From NCBI GenBank assembly GCA_015521615.1, contig WANW01000029.1, positions 1-46,480 on the forward strand: DNA of 46,480 nucleotides, given 5' to 3'. The translations under genes were made by a program, and so were the position numbers. Under the pieces are notes generated by a model. It was not told the origin of the DNA and made no database searches. It saw only the letters and a program-made list of their open reading frames with translations. This stretch comes from Candidatus Hydrothermarchaeota archaeon (GTDB taxonomy: Archaea; Hydrothermarchaeota; Hydrothermarchaeia; Hydrothermarchaeales; BMS3B). Below are positions 1 through 15,652 of the stretch, piece after piece (within the stretch, counting starts at the first letter, position 1; every line of letters begins with the position of its first letter).

Positions 1-590
1 CCTAATAAAAATAGCCAATCATTAGGAAATTCATTTCTTATTTTTTTTACAACTTCTTCAAGAAATTTCTCATCTTTAACTTTTACGTATCTGCTACTAT
101 TCTCAATTTTTTTTAGTAAACCTCCTATTCCGATATATTTGAAACCTATATCTTTAAGCTCTATATAACAATCTAAGTACTCTTCTACGCTATTCCCTTG
201 AGCTACACCAACTAAATTAAAATTATAATCTCCAGAATCATACACTTCAATTGCTTCTTTAGCACTTTTTATTGTTGCATCCTTATTCTTTAAAACATCG
301 ATTATAATACCATATTCCACACACATATTTTCGTAAACTTCAAATAATTTTTCATATCCATTAGGTATACATCCATCTTTAGTAAAAACCGCAGAATCTG
401 CCATTTTTATTATATTTTCTCCTTCAAATTCGCGAAATAATCTCTGAAAATTTTTTGATGTATTTGCATGGGCCATAATTCCAACTTTAAATGGCAATTT
501 CGAAATATTACAATATCTTAAAAGTTCAAGTGACTTTGGCCTATCTACTACAAAAAATGGTATTGGATATTTAAGTTCAATCTTTTTCAC
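1..590 (-). CDS. TGT-fold (DpdA-like) guanine transglycosylase, 3'-truncated by window edge
   Basis: Manual translation from GTG at 590 (AGGGG upstream) stays open to base 1: MKKIELKYPIPFFVVDRP...KMADSAVF...YGIIIDVL...LVGVAQGNSVEEYLDCYIELKDIGFKYIGIGGLL...WLFLLG. The DS, xD, QG, GGL and LLG motifs occur in TGT-barrel order. Very AT-rich; not in the ORF track. Confidence 0.7.
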   Translation of the reverse strand, partial: MKKIELKYPIPFFVVDRPKSLELLRYCNISKLPFKVGIMAHANTSKNFQRLFREFEGENIIKMADSAVFTKDGCIPNGYEKLFEVYENMCVEYGIIIDVLKNKDATIKSAKEAIEVYDSGDYNFNLVGVAQGNSVEEYLDCYIELKDIGFKYIGIGGLLKKIENSSRYVKVKDEKFLEEVVKKIRNEFPNDWLFLL

Positions 591-772
591 ATTATCCCCT
601 CTCTGTGTTTTAGGAAGAGAGGTTTTTAAAGAAATGTGTATTATAAGAAATATTTAAATTTTATTATTTGCAACAATAATATCTTAGAATACTAAAATTT
701 TTTCTCTACCAGTAAATTAAGAAAAGAATAATTAAAATTATGTTTTCCTTATGATTAGTTTGCTTATATTTC

Positions 773-1132
773 TCACCCATACAAAACCGCGGGACTCTTT
801 TGCCTGATGTCCGGCACCGTTAGAGCTATATTTTTCTCTTCTTTTTCTCCCTGAAGTATAATCAGTATTAAAATTGCATTTCCATACAATTTTGTTCTTA
901 CATTACACTTTTTTAATGTGCACAAAATCTCTCTCACTCTTTCCCTGCTCAGATTCAATACCTCAGACAGATACTCGGTGGCATTAATTATCTCTATTCC
1001 AACAAGATTTTTCTTATAATCGAAGTCCAGTATTAAATTTCCCAGTTCAACACTGCCCTTGGACTTCGAATCTCTGCGAAATATGAACAGATTGTCATTA
1101 TCTCTGTCGTAGCTGAATTCGAATTCCTTCAT
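773..1132 (-). CDS. DUF2283 family protein (putative antitoxin)
   Basis: YDRDNDNLFI...LILDFDYKKNLVGIEIINA matches the DUF2283 pattern; overlaps the upstream DUF4258 gene. Confidence 0.75.
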   Translation of the reverse strand: MKEFEFSYDRDNDNLFIFRRDSKSKGSVELGNLILDFDYKKNLVGIEIINATEYLSEVLNLSRERVREILCTLKKCNVRTKLYGNAILILIILQGEKEEKNIALTVPDIRQKSPAVLYG

Positions 1133-1452
1133 CCTTTATCCACCATCCGCTGCCATCTTCGATTGATTTTTATCACGGTGGGCACTATTATCTTGTTACC
1201 GCTAAATACTAAAATGTAACGGTGAGCCTGAGTTTTACTATAGCCAAAGTAGCAGTCATACTTTTCCTCATCGGGATTACTCGACTTCTGTTTCGCGGCA
1301 AAAATCAACCTATCTGGGTTAATTATATTTTCTATGACTTCATCTATATCTATACCTCTAAACTCTGCTCGTAATTTTGCATGTCTCGTTATTATTATAT
1401 CGCTTCTTTTATACTGTTTCAATTTAGATTTTACATGATCCCTGTAATTCAT
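1129..1452 (-). CDS. DUF4258 family protein (RelE-like putative toxin)
   Basis: ITRHAKLRAEFRGIDIDEVIENI and C-terminal IIVPTV; paired with DUF2283. Confidence 0.7.
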   Translation of the reverse strand: MNYRDHVKSKLKQYKRSDIIITRHAKLRAEFRGIDIDEVIENIINPDRLIFAAKQKSSNPDEEKYDCYFGYSKTQAHRYILVFSGNKIIVPTVIKINRRWQRMVDKG

Positions 1453-1631: not shown

Positions 1632-2798
1632 ATGTATGTGGAGAGGGATGTGGAGGAAACCTTTGACAAGGTCGCTGAGGTTTACAGCATAGTGGCTCTG
1701 GTTGGAGCGAGGCAGGCTGGCAAGACCACACTCCTTAAGAAAAAGCTTGAAGAAGTGCCAAAAAGCGGATACGTTGCTTTGGACGACCCCGATGCCAGGG
1801 ACATCTTCAATGAGGACATAAAAAAATTTGAGAAGCAGTATGTAGAAGGAAATGCAATCACGGGCATAGACGAGGTACAGTACGGAAGAGACGCGGGGAT
1901 AAAGCTGAAATATCTCGCAGACAGGGGGCATAAAATCTGGGTAACTTCCTCCTCCGAAATTCTCCTCAGCAGAGATGTGCTCTCCTACCTCGTGGGAAGG
2001 GTGTCAATAATAAGACTTTACCCCTTCTCTCTGCGTGAGTTCCTGCGTGCAAAGGATATCAGGGTTTTAACCGATAGGATAAAGAGCCGAGCCGTGTGGG
2101 AGCACATAAATTATGGTGGCTATCCCAGAGTAGTTTTAACCGACGACGCTGAAATCAAGCAGATAATTCTCCGGGACCTGATAGAAACCATGCTCCTGAA
2201 GGATGTTTCCAGAAGCTTCTCAATAGAGGACATGGACGCCCTTGAAAGGTTGACAAAATATCTTGCGGCAAACACAGGAGCACTGCTCAACTATGAGTCT
2301 ATAATGAAGGCTCTGGACATATCCTTCCAGACTCTCAGGAAGTATCTAAATGCCATGGAGAAGAGCTACATCATAACCAGAGTTCCACCCTTCTATACGA
2401 ACAAAACAAAGGAGCTCACAAAAAGGTCAAAGGTCTATTTTACCGATACCGGGCTGAGAAATGCCGTTCTCAGGAGGAGCTATACCGAGCCTTCTGGGAA
2501 GATTTTTGAGAATTATGTTCTCATGGAACTCAGAAAGGCTGGCTTAGAGGTTAAATACTGGCGTACAAAAAGCGGTGCCGAGGTGGACTTTGTTGTGGAA
2601 GTGGATGGAAATCCCATGCCAGTGGAAGTTAAAACCCCCTCTCCTTCAATGAGCAGGAGCCTGGCTTCCTTTATCAGAACCTACTCCCCCGAAGAAGCCT
2701 TCGTTATATTTTACAGGGGAAATAGGGAGGAGCATGAGGTGGAAAACTGCAGAGTGGTGTTTACCGATGTTTTTGAGCTGCTGGAGAGGTGGGGCTAA
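1632..2798 (+). CDS. AAA_14 ATPase with DUF4143 (PD-(D/E)xK-like) C-terminal domain
   Basis: Walker A GARQAGKT, Walker B IDEVQ, GGYP, YWRTKSGAEVDFV...PVEVK. Confidence 0.9.
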   Translation: MYVERDVEETFDKVAEVYSIVALVGARQAGKTTLLKKKLEEVPKSGYVALDDPDARDIFNEDIKKFEKQYVEGNAITGIDEVQYGRDAGIKLKYLADRGHKIWVTSSSEILLSRDVLSYLVGRVSIIRLYPFSLREFLRAKDIRVLTDRIKSRAVWEHINYGGYPRVVLTDDAEIKQIILRDLIETMLLKDVSRSFSIEDMDALERLTKYLAANTGALLNYESIMKALDISFQTLRKYLNAMEKSYIITRVPPFYTNKTKELTKRSKVYFTDTGLRNAVLRRSYTEPSGKIFENYVLMELRKAGLEVKYWRTKSGAEVDFVVEVDGNPMPVEVKTPSPSMSRSLASFIRTYSPEEAFVIFYRGNREEHEVENCRVVFTDVFELLERWG

Positions 2799-2821: not shown

Positions 2822-3421
2822 CTATAACCCCTCCCTCGCAATAAGCTCATACAACCTAGTAACCCGGTAGTACTTGTGGTGGGTTCTTGTCTCCCTTTTT
2901 AGCTTTGCTCTTCTGTGCTTTCTCTTCAGCACCTTTGCCCTGCAGAGATCAACAAGCCCCTCATCTCTCAGAGTTTCAAGCAGAATCCTTGTTCTCTCAG
3001 CTGGGATGGAGAGAGCCTTCGAAATATGGAGGTGGTTCTCGCATCCCGCCTTTTTAAGAAACTCAAGAAGCTCAAAAGCTTCCTCTGAATAGCGTTCCTT
3101 GAAGTACTGGGCAACCCCCCTCTTCAACAGGCTTCTCAGAAGGTGCTCGCCCTCTCTGCTCAGGGAGAAGTACAGGTGGTGCTTTCTCACCTCAAGGGTG
3201 AGCTTAAATCTAGCCTCACTTTTCTTTATCGCCGAGCCCGGAGTGCGCTCAACAATGCATGCCTCTTCAAAACGTCTCAGGGTGTGCATCACCTCTTCCC
3301 TTGGAAATTTGAGCCTCTTTGCAATTGCATTTGCGTAGTCTGCATTCGCCCTCCTCAGGTGGATAAGGATGTAAAGCTCCAGAGGCGAAAGCTCAAGCAT
3401 AAAATGCCTCTTCCATTGCAA
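2822..3421 (-). CDS. Tandem DUF2250-like winged-helix protein
   Basis: Two similar halves (LIHLRRANADYANAIAK...RKHHLYFSLS and LEFLKKAGCENHLHISK...THHKYYRVT); start may be the ATG at 3400. Confidence 0.65.
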   Translation of the reverse strand: MQWKRHFMLELSPLELYILIHLRRANADYANAIAKRLKFPREEVMHTLRRFEEACIVERTPGSAIKKSEARFKLTLEVRKHHLYFSLSREGEHLLRSLLKRGVAQYFKERYSEEAFELLEFLKKAGCENHLHISKALSIPAERTRILLETLRDEGLVDLCRAKVLKRKHRRAKLKRETRTHHKYYRVTRLYELIAREGL

Positions 3422-12665: not shown

Positions 12666-13253
12666 TCAAAATTTATCTTCAAGCTTTTTAAATATTAAGT
12701 AGTAGAGGCAGAGGAAAGATGCCAGGGCAAACACCAGAGGGAGGCGCATCTCCATGGGCATTCCCACGCCGCCGGGATGAAGCTGCCAGGTGTCGAGGCT
12801 GCGGAGGCGCAAGTAGAGCAGGAGATTTGTGATTATCAAGAGTGCTGAGGCAGAGGCAAGGAGTCTGCGCTCATTGAGCAAGTGAAGAAGCAGCAGAAGC
12901 GGTAGCATCGCATAACTTATAACGAGGAAGTAAAAGCGTGGCTCACTCGCAGTAAATGCGCCCCAGGTGATGTGCTCAAAGAAGTAGATTACCACCAGGT
13001 TTGCAAGGGCGAAGGGCAGCGCAGTTACTGCAAGCTTAAAGGAGGTCTTCCTGTATTTCTCCCTCTTCGCGGAAAAAATTCCGAGAAGCGCCGCGAGATA
13101 GAGGGAGCCCAGAGAGATGTAGAGCAGAGGAAGGTGCAGGTAGAGCAGCTTGTAGCTCGCGCCCAGAAACTCCTCCTCGGGGGCGAGGTAGGCCAGAACA
13201 GATGCCACGCCGGCGAAGACAAAAAGGGCGTAAACACATCTCCATTCAGCCAT
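12666..13253 (-). CDS. CcmC-like heme-handling membrane protein (degenerate WWD motif)
   Basis: YLHLP, WGAFTASEPR and QLHP positioned like CcmC His/WWD/His elements; hydrophobic helices. Confidence 0.6.
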   Translation of the reverse strand: MAEWRCVYALFVFAGVASVLAYLAPEEEFLGASYKLLYLHLPLLYISLGSLYLAALLGIFSAKREKYRKTSFKLAVTALPFALANLVVIYFFEHITWGAFTASEPRFYFLVISYAMLPLLLLLHLLNERRLLASASALLIITNLLLYLRLRSLDTWQLHPGGVGMPMEMRLPLVFALASFLCLYYLIFKKLEDKF

Positions 13254-14361
13254 TTCCCGCTCTCCTGAACCTCCTTATGAAGTCTTCCATAAACTCCACG
13301 AACTCGCCCTTGCGAATCGCCCGCCTCGCATCGCGCATCAGGCGCTGCATGAAATGCAGGTTGTGCAGAGTAACCAGGCGCATTCCCAGCGCCTCTCCGG
13401 AGCGCATGAGGTGGCTCACGTAGGCGCGGGTGTAGTTTCTGCAGGTGTAGCAGGTGCAGCCCTCCTCCAGGGGCAGGTCGCTGCTCAGGTGCTTCGCCTT
13501 GGTGATGCTGTACTTGCCCTGGCGGGTGTAAACGGCGCTGTGCCGCGCATTGCGCGTGGGAAAGGCGGAGTCGAATATATCCACGCCCCGCGCTATTGCC
13601 TCGAGCACCTCTACCGGGGAGCCCAGGCCCATGAGGTAGCGGGGCTTCTCCTCCGGCAGCGCGGAGATGCTCACCTCCAGCATCTCGAGCATAGTGCCAT
13701 GGGGCTCGCCTATGCTCAGCCCGCCTATGCCGTAGCCGTCAAAGTCCAGCTTGGCGAGCTGCTCGGCGCTCTCTCTGCGCAGGTCTGCGAAGGTTCCTCC
13801 CTGTGCGATGGCAAAGAGCAGCTGCCCATCGCAGGAGTGCGCAGCCTTGCACTGCCTCGCCCACCGTGTGGTTCTTGCCACGCTCTCCACATAGCGCTCC
13901 CTCGCCTCACCGTAGGGGGGGCAGTCGTCCAGCGTCATGGCAACGTCACTGCCGAGCGCCTCCTGCACGGCGATGCACAGCTCCGGTGAAAACACGTGCC
14001 TCGAGTTGTCGAAGGGAGAGCGGAAGGCAATACCTCGCCTGGTAAACTCCGGCTTGAACTCCCGCCTCAGAGCCTGAAATCCGCCTGAGTCGGTGAAAAT
14101 CGTGTGATGAAAGTTCATAAAGCGGTGGAGTCCACCCTGCTGGGCAATCACCTCCACACCTGGCTTGAGGTACAGCACCAGGGCGTTGCATATTATCGCC
14201 TCGAAGCCAAGCTCCAGGAGCTCATCGCTGGCGAGGGTCTTGACGCTCGCCTTTGTGGCTACAGGCATGAAGCAGGGCGTCTCCACGGTGCCATGGGCTG
14301 TGCGCAGCTTTCCCGCCCTTGCCTTAGTTGAGGAATCCTCGCAGCTAACGGAGAAGCTCAT
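13246..14361 (-). CDS. tgt: Bacterial-type tRNA-guanine(34) transglycosylase
   Basis: [57 protein letters not shown] Zn site; no PUA domain. Confidence 0.9.
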
Positions 14362-14473
14362 TGCCCTTAAACCGCAGAGGAACGTCGGCAAAGCCTGCGC
14401 TGGAAAAAGCTTATTAATGCTTGCTACGAGCTTTCACGTAACTGCAACAGGAGAATTGCAAGGAGGCATGGTC

Positions 14474-15652
14474 ATGAAGGCTGTTCTCGCATACTCAGGC
14501 GGACTCGATACCAGCGTTTGCGTTAAGCTGCTTCAGGAGAAGTATGGCTGCGAGGTTGTAACCGTCACCGTGGACGTGGGTTTAGCCAGAGAGGAGCTTC
14601 GCGAGGTTGAGGAGAAGGCGCGCTCTCTGGGGGTGGTGGAGCACTACACCATCGACGCAAGGGAGGAGTTCGCCCGGGAGTACATCTTCAGAGCGATAAA
14701 GGCCAATGCAAGCTACCAGGGCTACCCGCTGAGCACGGCGCTCGCGAGGCCGCTGATTGCAGAGAAGGTGGTGGAGGTGGCGGAGCGCGAGAACGCAGAG
14801 GCTCTCGCACATGGCGCCACCGGAAAGGGCAACGACCAGTTCCGCTTTGAGGCTGTGTTCAGGGCCCTGGCGCCGGATAAGAGGATAATCGCCCCCATAC
14901 GCGAGCTCAACCTCACGCGGAGGGAGAGCATCGCCTATGCCAAGAAGCACGGCATCGCCGTGCCAGTGGATGTGGAGAAGCCCTACAGCATAGACGAGAA
15001 CCTGTGGGGCAGGAGCATTGAGGGCGGTGCCCTGGAGGACCCCGCCTTTGTGCCGCCGGAGGAGATATACGAGTGGACACAGCTGCGCAGGCATAAGCCA
15101 GAAGTTGTGGAGGTGGAGTTTTCCCAGGGCACGCCTGTGAAGCTCAACGGAAGGGCACTTAAGCCGGTGGAGCTCATCCTGGAGGCGAACCGCCTAGCGG
15201 GTGAGCACGGCGTGGGCAGGATAGACATGATAGAGGACCGCATCCTGGGGCTCAAGGCGAGGGAAAACTACGAGTGCCCCGCGGCGGAGTTGCTTATAAC
15301 CGCCCACAGGGCGCTTGAGGCGCTGGTGCTCACGCGCAGGGAGCTCGCCTTCAAGGCGCAGGTGGAGGCGAGGTGGAGCGAACTGGTGTACTTTGGCTTG
15401 TGGAATGAACCACTGCGCCTCGCGCTGGACGCCTTTATAGACAGAACCCAGGAGCGCGTCTCAGGCAGGGTGAAGCTCAGGCTTCACCAGGGCAGTTGCA
15501 GAGTCGTTGCGAGAGAGTCGGAGAATGCCCTCTACTCCCTTGAGGCGGTCTCCTTCGATGACAAGAGCATGGACCAGCGCAGCGTGGAGGGAATGCTCCG
15601 CTACCACTCCCTTCAGGCGGAGATGTACTGGCGCACCCTGCGGAAGCGCTAA
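14474..15652 (+). CDS. argG: Argininosuccinate synthase
   Basis: [37 protein letters not shown]; GGAGG at 14462. Confidence 0.97.

Follow-up and report, generated by a model that had tools for sequence, protein, structure and literature searches.

The DNA analysed here, referred to as the window, is a stretch of 46,480 bp covering positions 1-46480 of contig C29 (WANW01000029.1) in assembly G000 of a Candidatus Hydrothermarchaeota archaeon (GCA_015521615.1; 100 contigs, 93.7% complete). Its first 590 bp carry, on the minus strand, the 5' part of a gene predicted to encode a DpdA-like transglycosylase barrel fused to a DpdC-like domain of family DUF6884. Base 1 is the end of the contig, which holds no left flank of this frame, and the remainder of the gene was traced through close relatives. 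The barrel gene opens a three-gene element of about 8.2 kb with a G+C content of about 30%.

The truncated gene and the element that it opens

In the list of open reading frames (ORFs), the frame extends over positions 3-590 (-), with a GTG start at 588-590 and a 3' end open past base 1, and encodes 196 amino acids. The chance of a stop-free run of 196 codons is about 8e-10 at the local base composition, and comparison with a 95%-identical copy on a metagenome contig (L079) revealed 26 nucleotide differences and 12 amino-acid changes, with a dN/dS of 0.21. Because of these two values, the frame is a real gene under purifying selection. G+C content was 29.0% at positions 1-1000, versus 46-64% in the intervals from position 2001 on and 52.1% for the genome. 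A first-pass annotation of the same DNA had described an open, AT-rich minus-strand frame with motifs of the transglycosylase (TGT) barrel in a given order, and all of them were located: DSAVF at residues 65-69, IIID at 95-98, VAQG at 129-132, IGGLL at 155-159 and FLL at 194-196. Bases 2-1 of the window are GG, the start of a glycine codon, so that the last motif holds as FLLG.

The complete protein comprises 412 amino acids in the L079 copy (positions 251-1489 of a contig of 8,536 bp), which shares 93% amino-acid and 95% nucleotide identity with the window frame. Another relative, P0200 (374 amino acids), was called from an internal methionine, has a natural C-terminal end and overlaps the window protein over 158 residues, all of them identical. 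Both run from FLLG into CFHPKR and further to G-A-D-Y-K-G-W, which holds the nucleophile Asp216 discussed below; a linker of about 45 residues and the DUF6884 domain follow, with motifs CSKKK (272-276) and SAKYG (314-318) in the L079 copy, both also found in P0200. The L079 copy scored 60.2 bits for DUF6884 (Pfam PF21818, cut-off 30) and 31.1 bits for YaaA/DUF328 (PF03883, cut-off 29.6), and matched PDC-M57A (3.6e-13) and DpdC (4.1e-7) among the PADLOC models. According to Pfam's authors, DUF6884 is distantly related to YaaA, carries CxxxK and LSAxxG motifs and has a cleft that binds DNA (PMC11701544); DpdC, the enzyme converting preQ0-DNA to dADG-DNA, is given as a DUF328/PF03883 protein (PMC12839542; PMC10164549). 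Both motifs were recovered along with the Pfam score. As judged from these comparisons, residues ~265-405, wholly outside the window, form a DUF6884 domain distantly related to the DpdC/YaaA (DUF328) family, and the window frame is the N-terminal 196 residues of a 412-residue enzyme combining a DpdA-like barrel with a DpdC-like domain.

The rest of the gene was not recovered from G000: tblastn with eight full-length relatives gave no match past residue ~197, the homologous protein from a closed archaeal genome (G042) matched just C29 and, weakly, C52, and PF21818 had no match in the assembly. On C52, a 275-residue frame (~1736-2362 (-), locus L024) weakly resembles family members (E 0.003-0.016) and may encode a further distant barrel.

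In L079, the second gene begins 2 bp after the barrel gene and encodes 1,797 amino acids with DEAD, Helicase_C, MrfA Zn-binding (MZB) and PLDc_2 domains (Pfam). Its PADLOC matches, DruE1 (471 bits, over the C-terminal two thirds including the MrfA Zn-binding domain) and DpdJ (141.5 bits), point to a DruE/DpdJ-like SF2 helicase with a C-terminal PLD nuclease. The third gene encodes a 490-residue protein with 14 relatives, which matched nothing in Pfam, PADLOC or PHROGs and showed no similarity to the unknown proteins of variant loci L064 or L042. Its model (pLDDT 82.2, pTM 0.85) looks like two OB-type barrels, fold matches being borderline (Foldseek 9.5e-6 to a tandem-OB SSB, TM 0.12-0.39; best Z 8.2).

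G+C content of the L079 element is 26-36% throughout. By blastn, L079 162-840 corresponds to C29 682-1 (95.2%) and L079 7785-8535 to positions 1-750 of a second G000 contig, C98 (90.7%). Because the two ends of L079 match the starts of C29 and C98, G000 has both ends of the same element, with about 6.9 kb unassembled between these contigs. C98 14-535 encodes residues 317-490 of the third protein, with 92% identity to L079, and the G+C fraction of C98 rises from 0.26-0.31 to 0.53-0.59 near position 600, just after the stop of the third gene at 538; beyond the element, ORFs resembling nrdG, nrdD and gyrA were recognized by eye.

In two genomes of the same genus, G002 and G001, the C98-side and C29-side flanks are located on one contig. 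They are separated by ~620 bp of AT-rich spacer with no ORF over 75 amino acids in G002 (L081 = G002:C3:10500-12500, ~570-1180) and by ~1.9 kb in G001, occupied by an AT-rich gene for a 592-residue TPR-repeat protein (L082 = G001:C2:372000-375200, 722-2500). Homology to the congeneric flanks resumes at window positions 771-784 and near C98 position 633. Since the flanks are just 0.6-1.9 kb apart in these two congeners, the element is a variable insertion, at a hotspot with variable cargo between the nrdG-like gene and a DUF2283 gene. The first-pass annotation had proposed that the frame begins an acquired island extending leftwards from the window, which L079, contig C98 and the near-empty sites of G001 and G002 bear out. 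Of the left-flank genes that it suggested looking for, a helicase and a PLD nuclease were found; the DpdC-like part turned out to be fused within the same protein and not to be a neighbour, and there was no dpdB or queCDE.

Relationship of the barrel to DpdA

The only families matched by the window fragment at E ≤ 0.001 were DpdA models, namely NCBIfam NF041059 (E 8.9e-9, local to residues 99-161) and PADLOC DpdA (E 1e-9, a local match around VGVAQG to GIGG). The cut-off of Pfam TGT (PF01702, 26.3 bits) was reached neither by the fragment (12 bits, E 0.11) nor by the full L079 protein (16.5) or the G042 homologue (18.3), as opposed to 473.9 bits for the tRNA-type tgt of the window. An alignment of 54 family members (A1, columns numbered after homologue P0004) was used as a profile against PDB sequences, and its sole match below E 0.01 was DpdA (7UI4, E 7e-5); two weaker rows were unrelated helical proteins. 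With hhalign, the family profile aligned with the canonical DpdA of G001 at 98.9% probability (E 3.7e-17, 147 columns), versus 17.4% (E 1.4e-3, 68 columns) for the tRNA tgt of the window taken as a control. Pfam gave no match to DpdA4 (DUF6610, PF20314) in the fragment, the G042 homologue, other family proteins or the L079 proteins. Likewise, three family members left the PHROGs families of queuine tRNA-ribosyltransferase (phrog_887, phrog_1279) unmatched; G001 DpdA touches both weakly.

Functions have been assigned to individual DpdA residues in PMC10164549: D95 as acid/base, D130 in base recognition, D256 as covalent nucleophile, further positions in base stacking, and the Gly206-Gly207 loop holding the 7-substituent of the base. 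A residue map was chained from three alignments (A1 profile with 7UI4, family with G001 DpdA, and G001 DpdA with 7UI4), an offset of 20 being checked at Phe99 and Leu236. In P0004 numbering, D65, F69, D97, Q130-G131, G155-G156, L195 and D215 correspond to DpdA D95, F99, D130, H181-G182, G206-G207, L236 and D256. Columns D65, D97, G131, G155 and G156 of A1 are invariant, and Q130, L195 and D215 are conserved in at least 90% of the sequences. The first six mapped active-site positions fall inside the window, including Phe69, which aligns with DpdA Phe99; the nucleophile is 20 residues past the contig end. All three active-site aspartates were found, Asp65 and Asp98 in the window and Asp216 in L079 (Asp178 of P0200), as were both base-pocket pairs, with Gln in place of His as in G001 DpdA. 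On this alignment evidence, the barrel keeps every DpdA active-site position. A Cys-rich insert (consensus FPCxxxxxC...C) occurs in many family members, e.g. at residues ~200-235 of P0020, and is not present in the window protein; in A1 it separates the second strand region from the DSG motif.

The fold was modelled on P0004 (490 amino acids), a homologue of the window protein 61% identical to the fragment by tblastn. The AlphaFold2 model (pLDDT 94.7, pTM 0.92) consists of eight strand-helix units (10-221), a helical linker (226-341) and an alpha/beta domain (344-483). Foldseek returned 7UI4 first (1.9e-9), followed by bacterial tRNA TGTs at about 1e-7, and VIA-align superposed 234-240 residues on bacterial TGT and the archaeal ArcTGT 1IQ8 (Z 19.6-19.9, root-mean-square deviation 3.0-3.2 Å). 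Residues 1 to ~225 are therefore modelled as a short (beta/alpha)8 barrel of the TGT superfamily. These results agree with the first-pass annotation, which had proposed a DpdA-like TIM barrel distinct from the tRNA-type tgt at 13-14 kb and had named the absence of a downstream catalytic Asp as grounds for rejection.

The same structural likeness raises the question of an RNA substrate. ArcS consists of a TGT-like domain, DUF5591 and a PUA domain, and an ArcS-type enzyme acting on preQ0 in tRNA would likewise combine a TGT-type barrel and a DUF5591-related domain. The C-terminal domain of the L079 protein does touch DUF5591 (25.7 bits), just below the cut-off of 26; no match listed is closer to the barrel in structure than ArcTGT and bacterial TGT (Z 19.9), and the host makes preQ0. 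However, no PUA or other tRNA-binding domain was detected in the L079 protein with Pfam, the profile comparison favours DpdA over tRNA tgt, G000 already has three tRNA-type TGT loci and the family is tightly linked to DNA helicases and nucleases. It also occurs in bacterial metagenome-assembled genomes (MAGs), and bacteria are not known to make archaeosine. Such a role in RNA is thus very improbable.

Wider family, partner modules and possible functions

An exhaustive HMMER search gave 153 cluster representatives at E ≤ 1e-3, 118 at ≤ 1e-10 and 68 at ≤ 1e-30, and the search of a large protein collection that found P0200 gave 377 protein clusters at E ≤ 1e-10. Among 120 matches listed, 18 were named, as DUF6884 domain-containing, peroxide stress protein YaaA, DUF328, hypothetical or, once, sensor histidine kinase; none of the precomputed Pfam lists of the matches listed includes TGT. 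Six of 61 related genomes, G000 included, matched the fragment at E ≤ 1e-3. The only close match was G042 (E 1e-38); the G001 match was its canonical DpdA, and those of G013, G043 and G060 were weak. In phages, one record matched, via the DUF6884 part only; on plasmids, the family barrel matches genes annotated dpdA at 23-31% identity.

A one-genome-per-species scan with one conserved peptide pattern yielded 46 loci, a sample biased towards members keeping this motif; ORFs within 6 kb were clustered and one representative per cluster was annotated. Judging by their labels, the hosts include archaea (Methanoperedens, Methanoregula, Methanosarcina, Thermoplasmata, Bathyarchaeia and Thermococcaceae MAGs) and bacterial MAGs (Planctomycetaceae, Aquificota, cyanobacteria, Chloroflexota and Bryobacterales, among others). 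DUF6884 was present in 42 of the 46 loci, as a C-terminal fusion in 20 and as an ORF of its own in 22; the remaining four, three of them on truncated contigs, showed none. N-terminal fusions are represented by P0020 and P0021. The modules next to this pair are interchangeable. HerA was found in 33 loci, 31 of them with a NurA-like protein of ~600 amino acids, one with NurA-like and GIY-YIG proteins and one with HerA alone on a 1.85-kb contig. Six loci combined SIR2 fused to an ORC/CDC6-like ATPase with a CARF6-matching protein of ~340 amino acids, two a DpdJ-like helicase with a small PLD protein (DpdK match 3.6e-9) and an unknown protein, and two had a small GIY-YIG protein alone. Of the last three loci, two are truncated contigs and one, L042, has a helicase and PLD of its own. 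In most blocks the barrel gene comes last; in the sub-type of the window it is the first. In the closed genome G042, the split form (DUF6884, NurA-like, HerA, barrel) occupies a 37-40% G+C block within DNA of ~50-57% G+C.

Several partners deserve separate mention. The HerA of the NurA-HerA sub-type (L018 5753-7621, L029 8167-9984) has as best PADLOC match the HerA model 'Type III coevolved' (271 and 257 bits), and the ~340-residue partner of the SIR2-ORC sub-type (L057 8964-9968) matches CARF6 models at 4.1e-21; these are hints of links to CRISPR type III or cyclic-nucleotide signalling. When HerA and NurA partners were looked for in G000, only weak HerA matches came up (C91 and C49, 31-32%, C-terminal part); these were dropped as candidate partners, the L079 sub-type using helicase-PLD. 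In a Methanoregula MAG (L030 3080-11971), a relative with 64% best-segment identity to P0004 stands after MutS, MutL and an HhH-GPD glycosylase-MarR-type fusion; the small GIY-YIG protein that it faces is also found in L068 and L071.

Because a constant pair of barrel and DpdC-like domain joins swappable nuclease/ATPase modules in AT-rich variable islands, a modification-restriction logic is proposed. We consider it probable that the element is a compact Dpd-like modification-restriction system working without DpdB, its chemistry being a proposal. The barrel would replace a guanine of duplex DNA by a 7-deazaguanine base, for which preQ0 made by the archaeosine pathway of the host is the likeliest candidate, in a double displacement with Asp216 as nucleophile and Asp65 as acid/base. 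Asp98 and Gln131 would read the base edge, and Phe69 and Leu195/196 would stack on the base. The nitrile, once inserted, would be converted in situ by the fused DUF6884 domain, much as dADG is made by DpdC. The helicase-PLD protein would translocate on DNA and cut DNA devoid of the mark, the OB-like 490-residue protein may help to bind DNA, and the helicase would also have to supply the ATP-driven DNA opening for which DpdB is responsible in Salmonella. G000 can supply preQ0, as it has a QueC (214 bits) on C98, ~19 kb from the element. The interpretation given in the first-pass annotation, a DNA-modification system with a DpdA-like first gene, is supported in all its testable parts.

A number of observations weigh against this proposal. 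The fragment reached 34.6 bits on NF041059, far from the curated cut-off of 200, and the full L079 protein just 45.6 bits on PADLOC DpdA (residues 101-262), compared with 432 bits for G001 DpdA. A C-terminal CxCxxC...H cluster segment common to G001 DpdA and 7UI4, which we take from TGT structures to bind Zn, has no counterpart in the full protein; the Cys-rich insert of other members may be a metal site that replaces it. 7UI4 was not among the 50 VIA-align matches listed. Taken by itself, the model establishes membership of the TGT superfamily and does not favour DpdA over tRNA enzymes; the separation is owed to sequence profiles and gene context. Hence, of the comparison with DpdA and ArcTGT suggested in the first-pass annotation, the profile part sided with DpdA and the structural part gave no separation. 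The two downstream genes of G000 are deduced from a relative 91-95% identical, across the gap of ~6.9 kb. DpdB is described as an ATPase required for DpdA in vitro (PMC10164549), yet DndB (PF14072) had no match at E ≤ 1 in the 93.7%-complete G000, and no DpdB or ParB model was matched by the three L079 proteins. No preQ0 genes (queCDE) are present in the element. QueC was found in 34 of 46 carriers (once with in-frame stops) versus 9 of 14 control genomes, i.e. without enrichment, and the 12 carriers with no QueC match include a chromosome-level assembly; QueC co-occurrence was dropped as a test of preQ0 use, these proportions not being discriminating. The interrupted QueC match is that of a Methanolobus MAG carrying L044 (G076:C14 45203-45834; 1-5 stops in two overlapping frames), where the preQ0 pathway may be broken in a genome with the system.

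Part of this pattern could also be explained by immunity through sensing or base excision. The barrel would then recognise, and possibly excise, guanine or 7-deazaguanine in invading DNA, many phages carrying such bases, with no marking of the host; DUF6884 would bind the damaged or flipped site, leaving destruction of the DNA to the attached nuclease/ATPase module. The lack of DpdB and the distribution of QueC would fit, and a constant module with several effectors, including one of SIR2 NADase type with a CARF-like partner, resembles a sensor-effector arrangement more than restriction-modification. Besides, a DUF6884 member is described in PMC11701544 as lesion-binding and base-flipping. Against this, all three transglycosylase aspartates, the covalent nucleophile included, are kept in at least 90% of the 54 members, the presence of a DpdC-like domain as constant partner accords with insertion and subsequent conversion, and DpdJ and DpdK, restriction components of Dpd, are matched by the helicase and PLD partners. 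We regard sensing as unlikely.

The HerA-linked loci and L030 suggest yet another role, in DNA repair, where barrel and DUF6884 would process damaged guanines and pass the DNA to end resection (NurA-HerA) or mismatch-repair proteins. NurA-HerA is known from archaeal end resection according to literature abstracts, the L030 relative comes directly after MutS, MutL and a glycosylase, and DUF6884/YfjM has been linked to lesion binding (PMC11701544). However, the gene resides in a 30% G+C insertion absent from two congeners, its distribution is sporadic (six of 61 related genomes, just one of them, G042, close), the SIR2, PLD and GIY-YIG partner modules match defence models, and the HerA of the family is best matched by a defence/CRISPR-associated model. 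An accessory function in repair is accordingly held to be decidedly unlikely.

Returning to DNA modification, the proposal can be widened to the whole family. Barrel and DUF6884 may constitute a self-contained, DpdB-independent writer of 7-deazaguanine or an unknown derivative in cellular DNA, shared by archaea and bacteria and serving at least four effector types (NurA-HerA, SIR2-ORC with CARF-like partner, DruE/DpdJ-like helicase-PLD and GIY-YIG), which would amount to a large undescribed defence group; this wider view is advanced tentatively, as possible more than as probable. If true, 7-deazaguanine marks would for the first time be placed in the chromosomal DNA of methanogen-related archaea. 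7-deazaguanine DNA systems are known from the eleven-gene bacterial Dpd cluster and from phages, and the element is of a much smaller design. Should the proposed chemistry hold, it would offer a minimal system for the access of a TGT barrel to duplex DNA without DpdB, would tie archaeal NurA-HerA and SIR2 modules to base-modification immunity, and would predict modified guanines in many uncultured archaea, a matter of importance for sequencing and for restriction barriers in genetics.

Known systems, borders and neighbouring genes

The Dpd system of Salmonella Montevideo (DpdA/DpdB/DpdC and DpdD-K) resembles the element in its TGT barrel with the Asp/Asp/Asp, Gly-Gly and stacking positions, in a DpdC-related domain, a DpdJ-like helicase and a DpdK-like PLD nuclease, and in its location on a horizontally variable island. 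It counts eleven genes instead of three, whereas the element fuses DpdA-like with DpdC-like and helicase with PLD parts, lacks DpdB and the C-terminal Cys-cluster segment of DpdA, and scores far below DpdA cut-offs. Moreover, the DpdC-like part of the element is DUF6884 and not a typical DUF328, and its 490-residue OB-like protein has no Dpd counterpart. At another chromosomal site of G001, a low-G+C block (L019, G001:C1, 6346-11697) contains, in a Dpd-like arrangement of four, genes for DUF6884 (156 amino acids), UvrD (741), a PD-(D/E)XK nuclease (401) and the canonical DpdA (417). It shares with the element DUF6884, a helicase, a nuclease, a TGT-type gene, low G+C, the V-G-V-A-Q-G motif and the absence of DpdB, but differs by its full-length DpdA in last position, its UvrD and PD-(D/E)XK partners and its separate DUF6884 gene.

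Some Druantia types pair DruE with a DNA methylase. The helicase of the element matches DruE1 but carries PLD and has a TGT-type enzyme as partner; the other two L079 proteins match no Dru model of PADLOC, within 8.5 kb of context. Among tRNA enzymes, bacterial TGT and ArcTGT have the same barrel fold and catalytic Asp positions, whereas the window family is below the Pfam TGT cut-off, lacks the Zn-cluster segment and PUA, and has a DNA-directed genomic context. A HerA/FtsK-centred, BREX-related system of archaea and bacteria, with a TGT homologue and GNAT, is described in PMC12839542 (2026), where dPreQ0 insertion without DpdB or DpdC is proposed. Its TGT is linked to a HerA/FtsK ATPase, like the HerA linkage seen here; as described there, it comprises PglZ, DUF6079, STAND, DUF4007 and GNAT and lacks DpdC, whereas the present family is defined by DUF6884, NurA-HerA and other modules, and none of these five parts was found among the annotated representatives of the family loci.

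Known DpdA subfamilies are given as bDpdA and DpdA1-4 in PMC10516641. No description of the barrel-DUF6884 fusion or of its NurA-HerA, SIR2 and helicase-PLD contexts was found in the literature, of which the supplementary DpdA lists (PMC10516641, PMC6884629) could include members. PDC-M57A matches the DUF6884 half, so that a candidate defence system with DUF6884 has already been catalogued computationally in PADLOC. What appears to be new, as far as sequence comparison goes, is the fusion of putative writer and converter without DpdB; enzymes of the DpdA/Dpd kind were known, and public annotation, in the 18 named matches, covers just the DUF6884 half.

The window's share of the element would be positions ~1-770, with a right border near 690-770 (Table 1). 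Position 682, where L079 homology is lost, was ruled out as the border: L079 2-162 is a multi-copy repeat. This repeat of ~161 bp, 77-95% identical among five G000 contigs, abuts the promoter side of the element in L079. Three of its copies come to within ~500 bp of where a contig stops, and it probably represents the terminus of a mobile element whose multiple copies disrupt assembly. No tRNA gene was found at the ends of the element. A TATA-like box in the upstream part is only a suggestion.

Table 1. Positions of the gene, its active-site codons, border elements and neighbouring ORFs (window coordinates, except for the repeat)
Feature	Position	Strand	Basis or remarks
DpdA-like barrel + DUF6884/DpdC-like gene, 5' part	1..590	-	Residues 1-196 and two bases of Gly197; cut by contig end
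Asp65 codon (M-A-D-S-A-V-F)	396..398	-	Aligns with DpdA Asp95, general acid/base (HMMER alignment to 7UI4); column D65 invariant in 54 sequences
Asp98 codon (end of G-I-I-I-D)	297..299	-	Aligns with base-recognising DpdA Asp130; column D97 of A1 invariant
Gln131-Gly132 codons (V-A-Q-G)	195..200	-	Align with DpdA His181-Gly182; Gln also in canonical DpdA of G001
Gly156-Gly157 codons (I-G-G-L-L)	120..125	-	Align with DpdA Gly206-Gly207; A1 columns G155, G156 invariant
Upstream non-coding part of element	591..770	-	Conserved with L079 up to 682; congener flank homology resumes at 771-784
TATA-like TTTAAATA	651-658	-	Pattern search: 2 matches in 3 kb, 0.56 expected
DUF2283 + DUF4258 gene pair	773-1452	-	119 and 107 amino acids
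AAA_14/DUF4143 ATPase	1632-2798	+	PADLOC candidate PDC-S01, 257.6 bits
DUF2250 winged-helix protein	2822-3421	-	Weak CARF/CasR-type matches
tRNA-type tgt	13246..14391	-	Pfam TGT
495-residue ORF	14165-15652	+	N-terminal weak QueC-family match, 23.8 bits
~161-bp repeat copies	C19 148-308, C74 19219-19379, C94 36274-36434, C85 861-1023, C33 40919-40977		blastn

Farther to the right in the window, the start of the 495-residue ORF overlaps the 5' end of the opposite tgt, and this ORF may belong to the archaeosine pathway. Just outside the element, the DUF2283 and DUF4258 genes overlap by 4 bp, are fairly AT-rich and partly conserved in the congeners, and look like a toxin-antitoxin-type pair. The AAA_14/DUF4143 ATPase comes with the DUF2250 protein beside it, and the run of genes related to defence may continue rightwards beyond the element.

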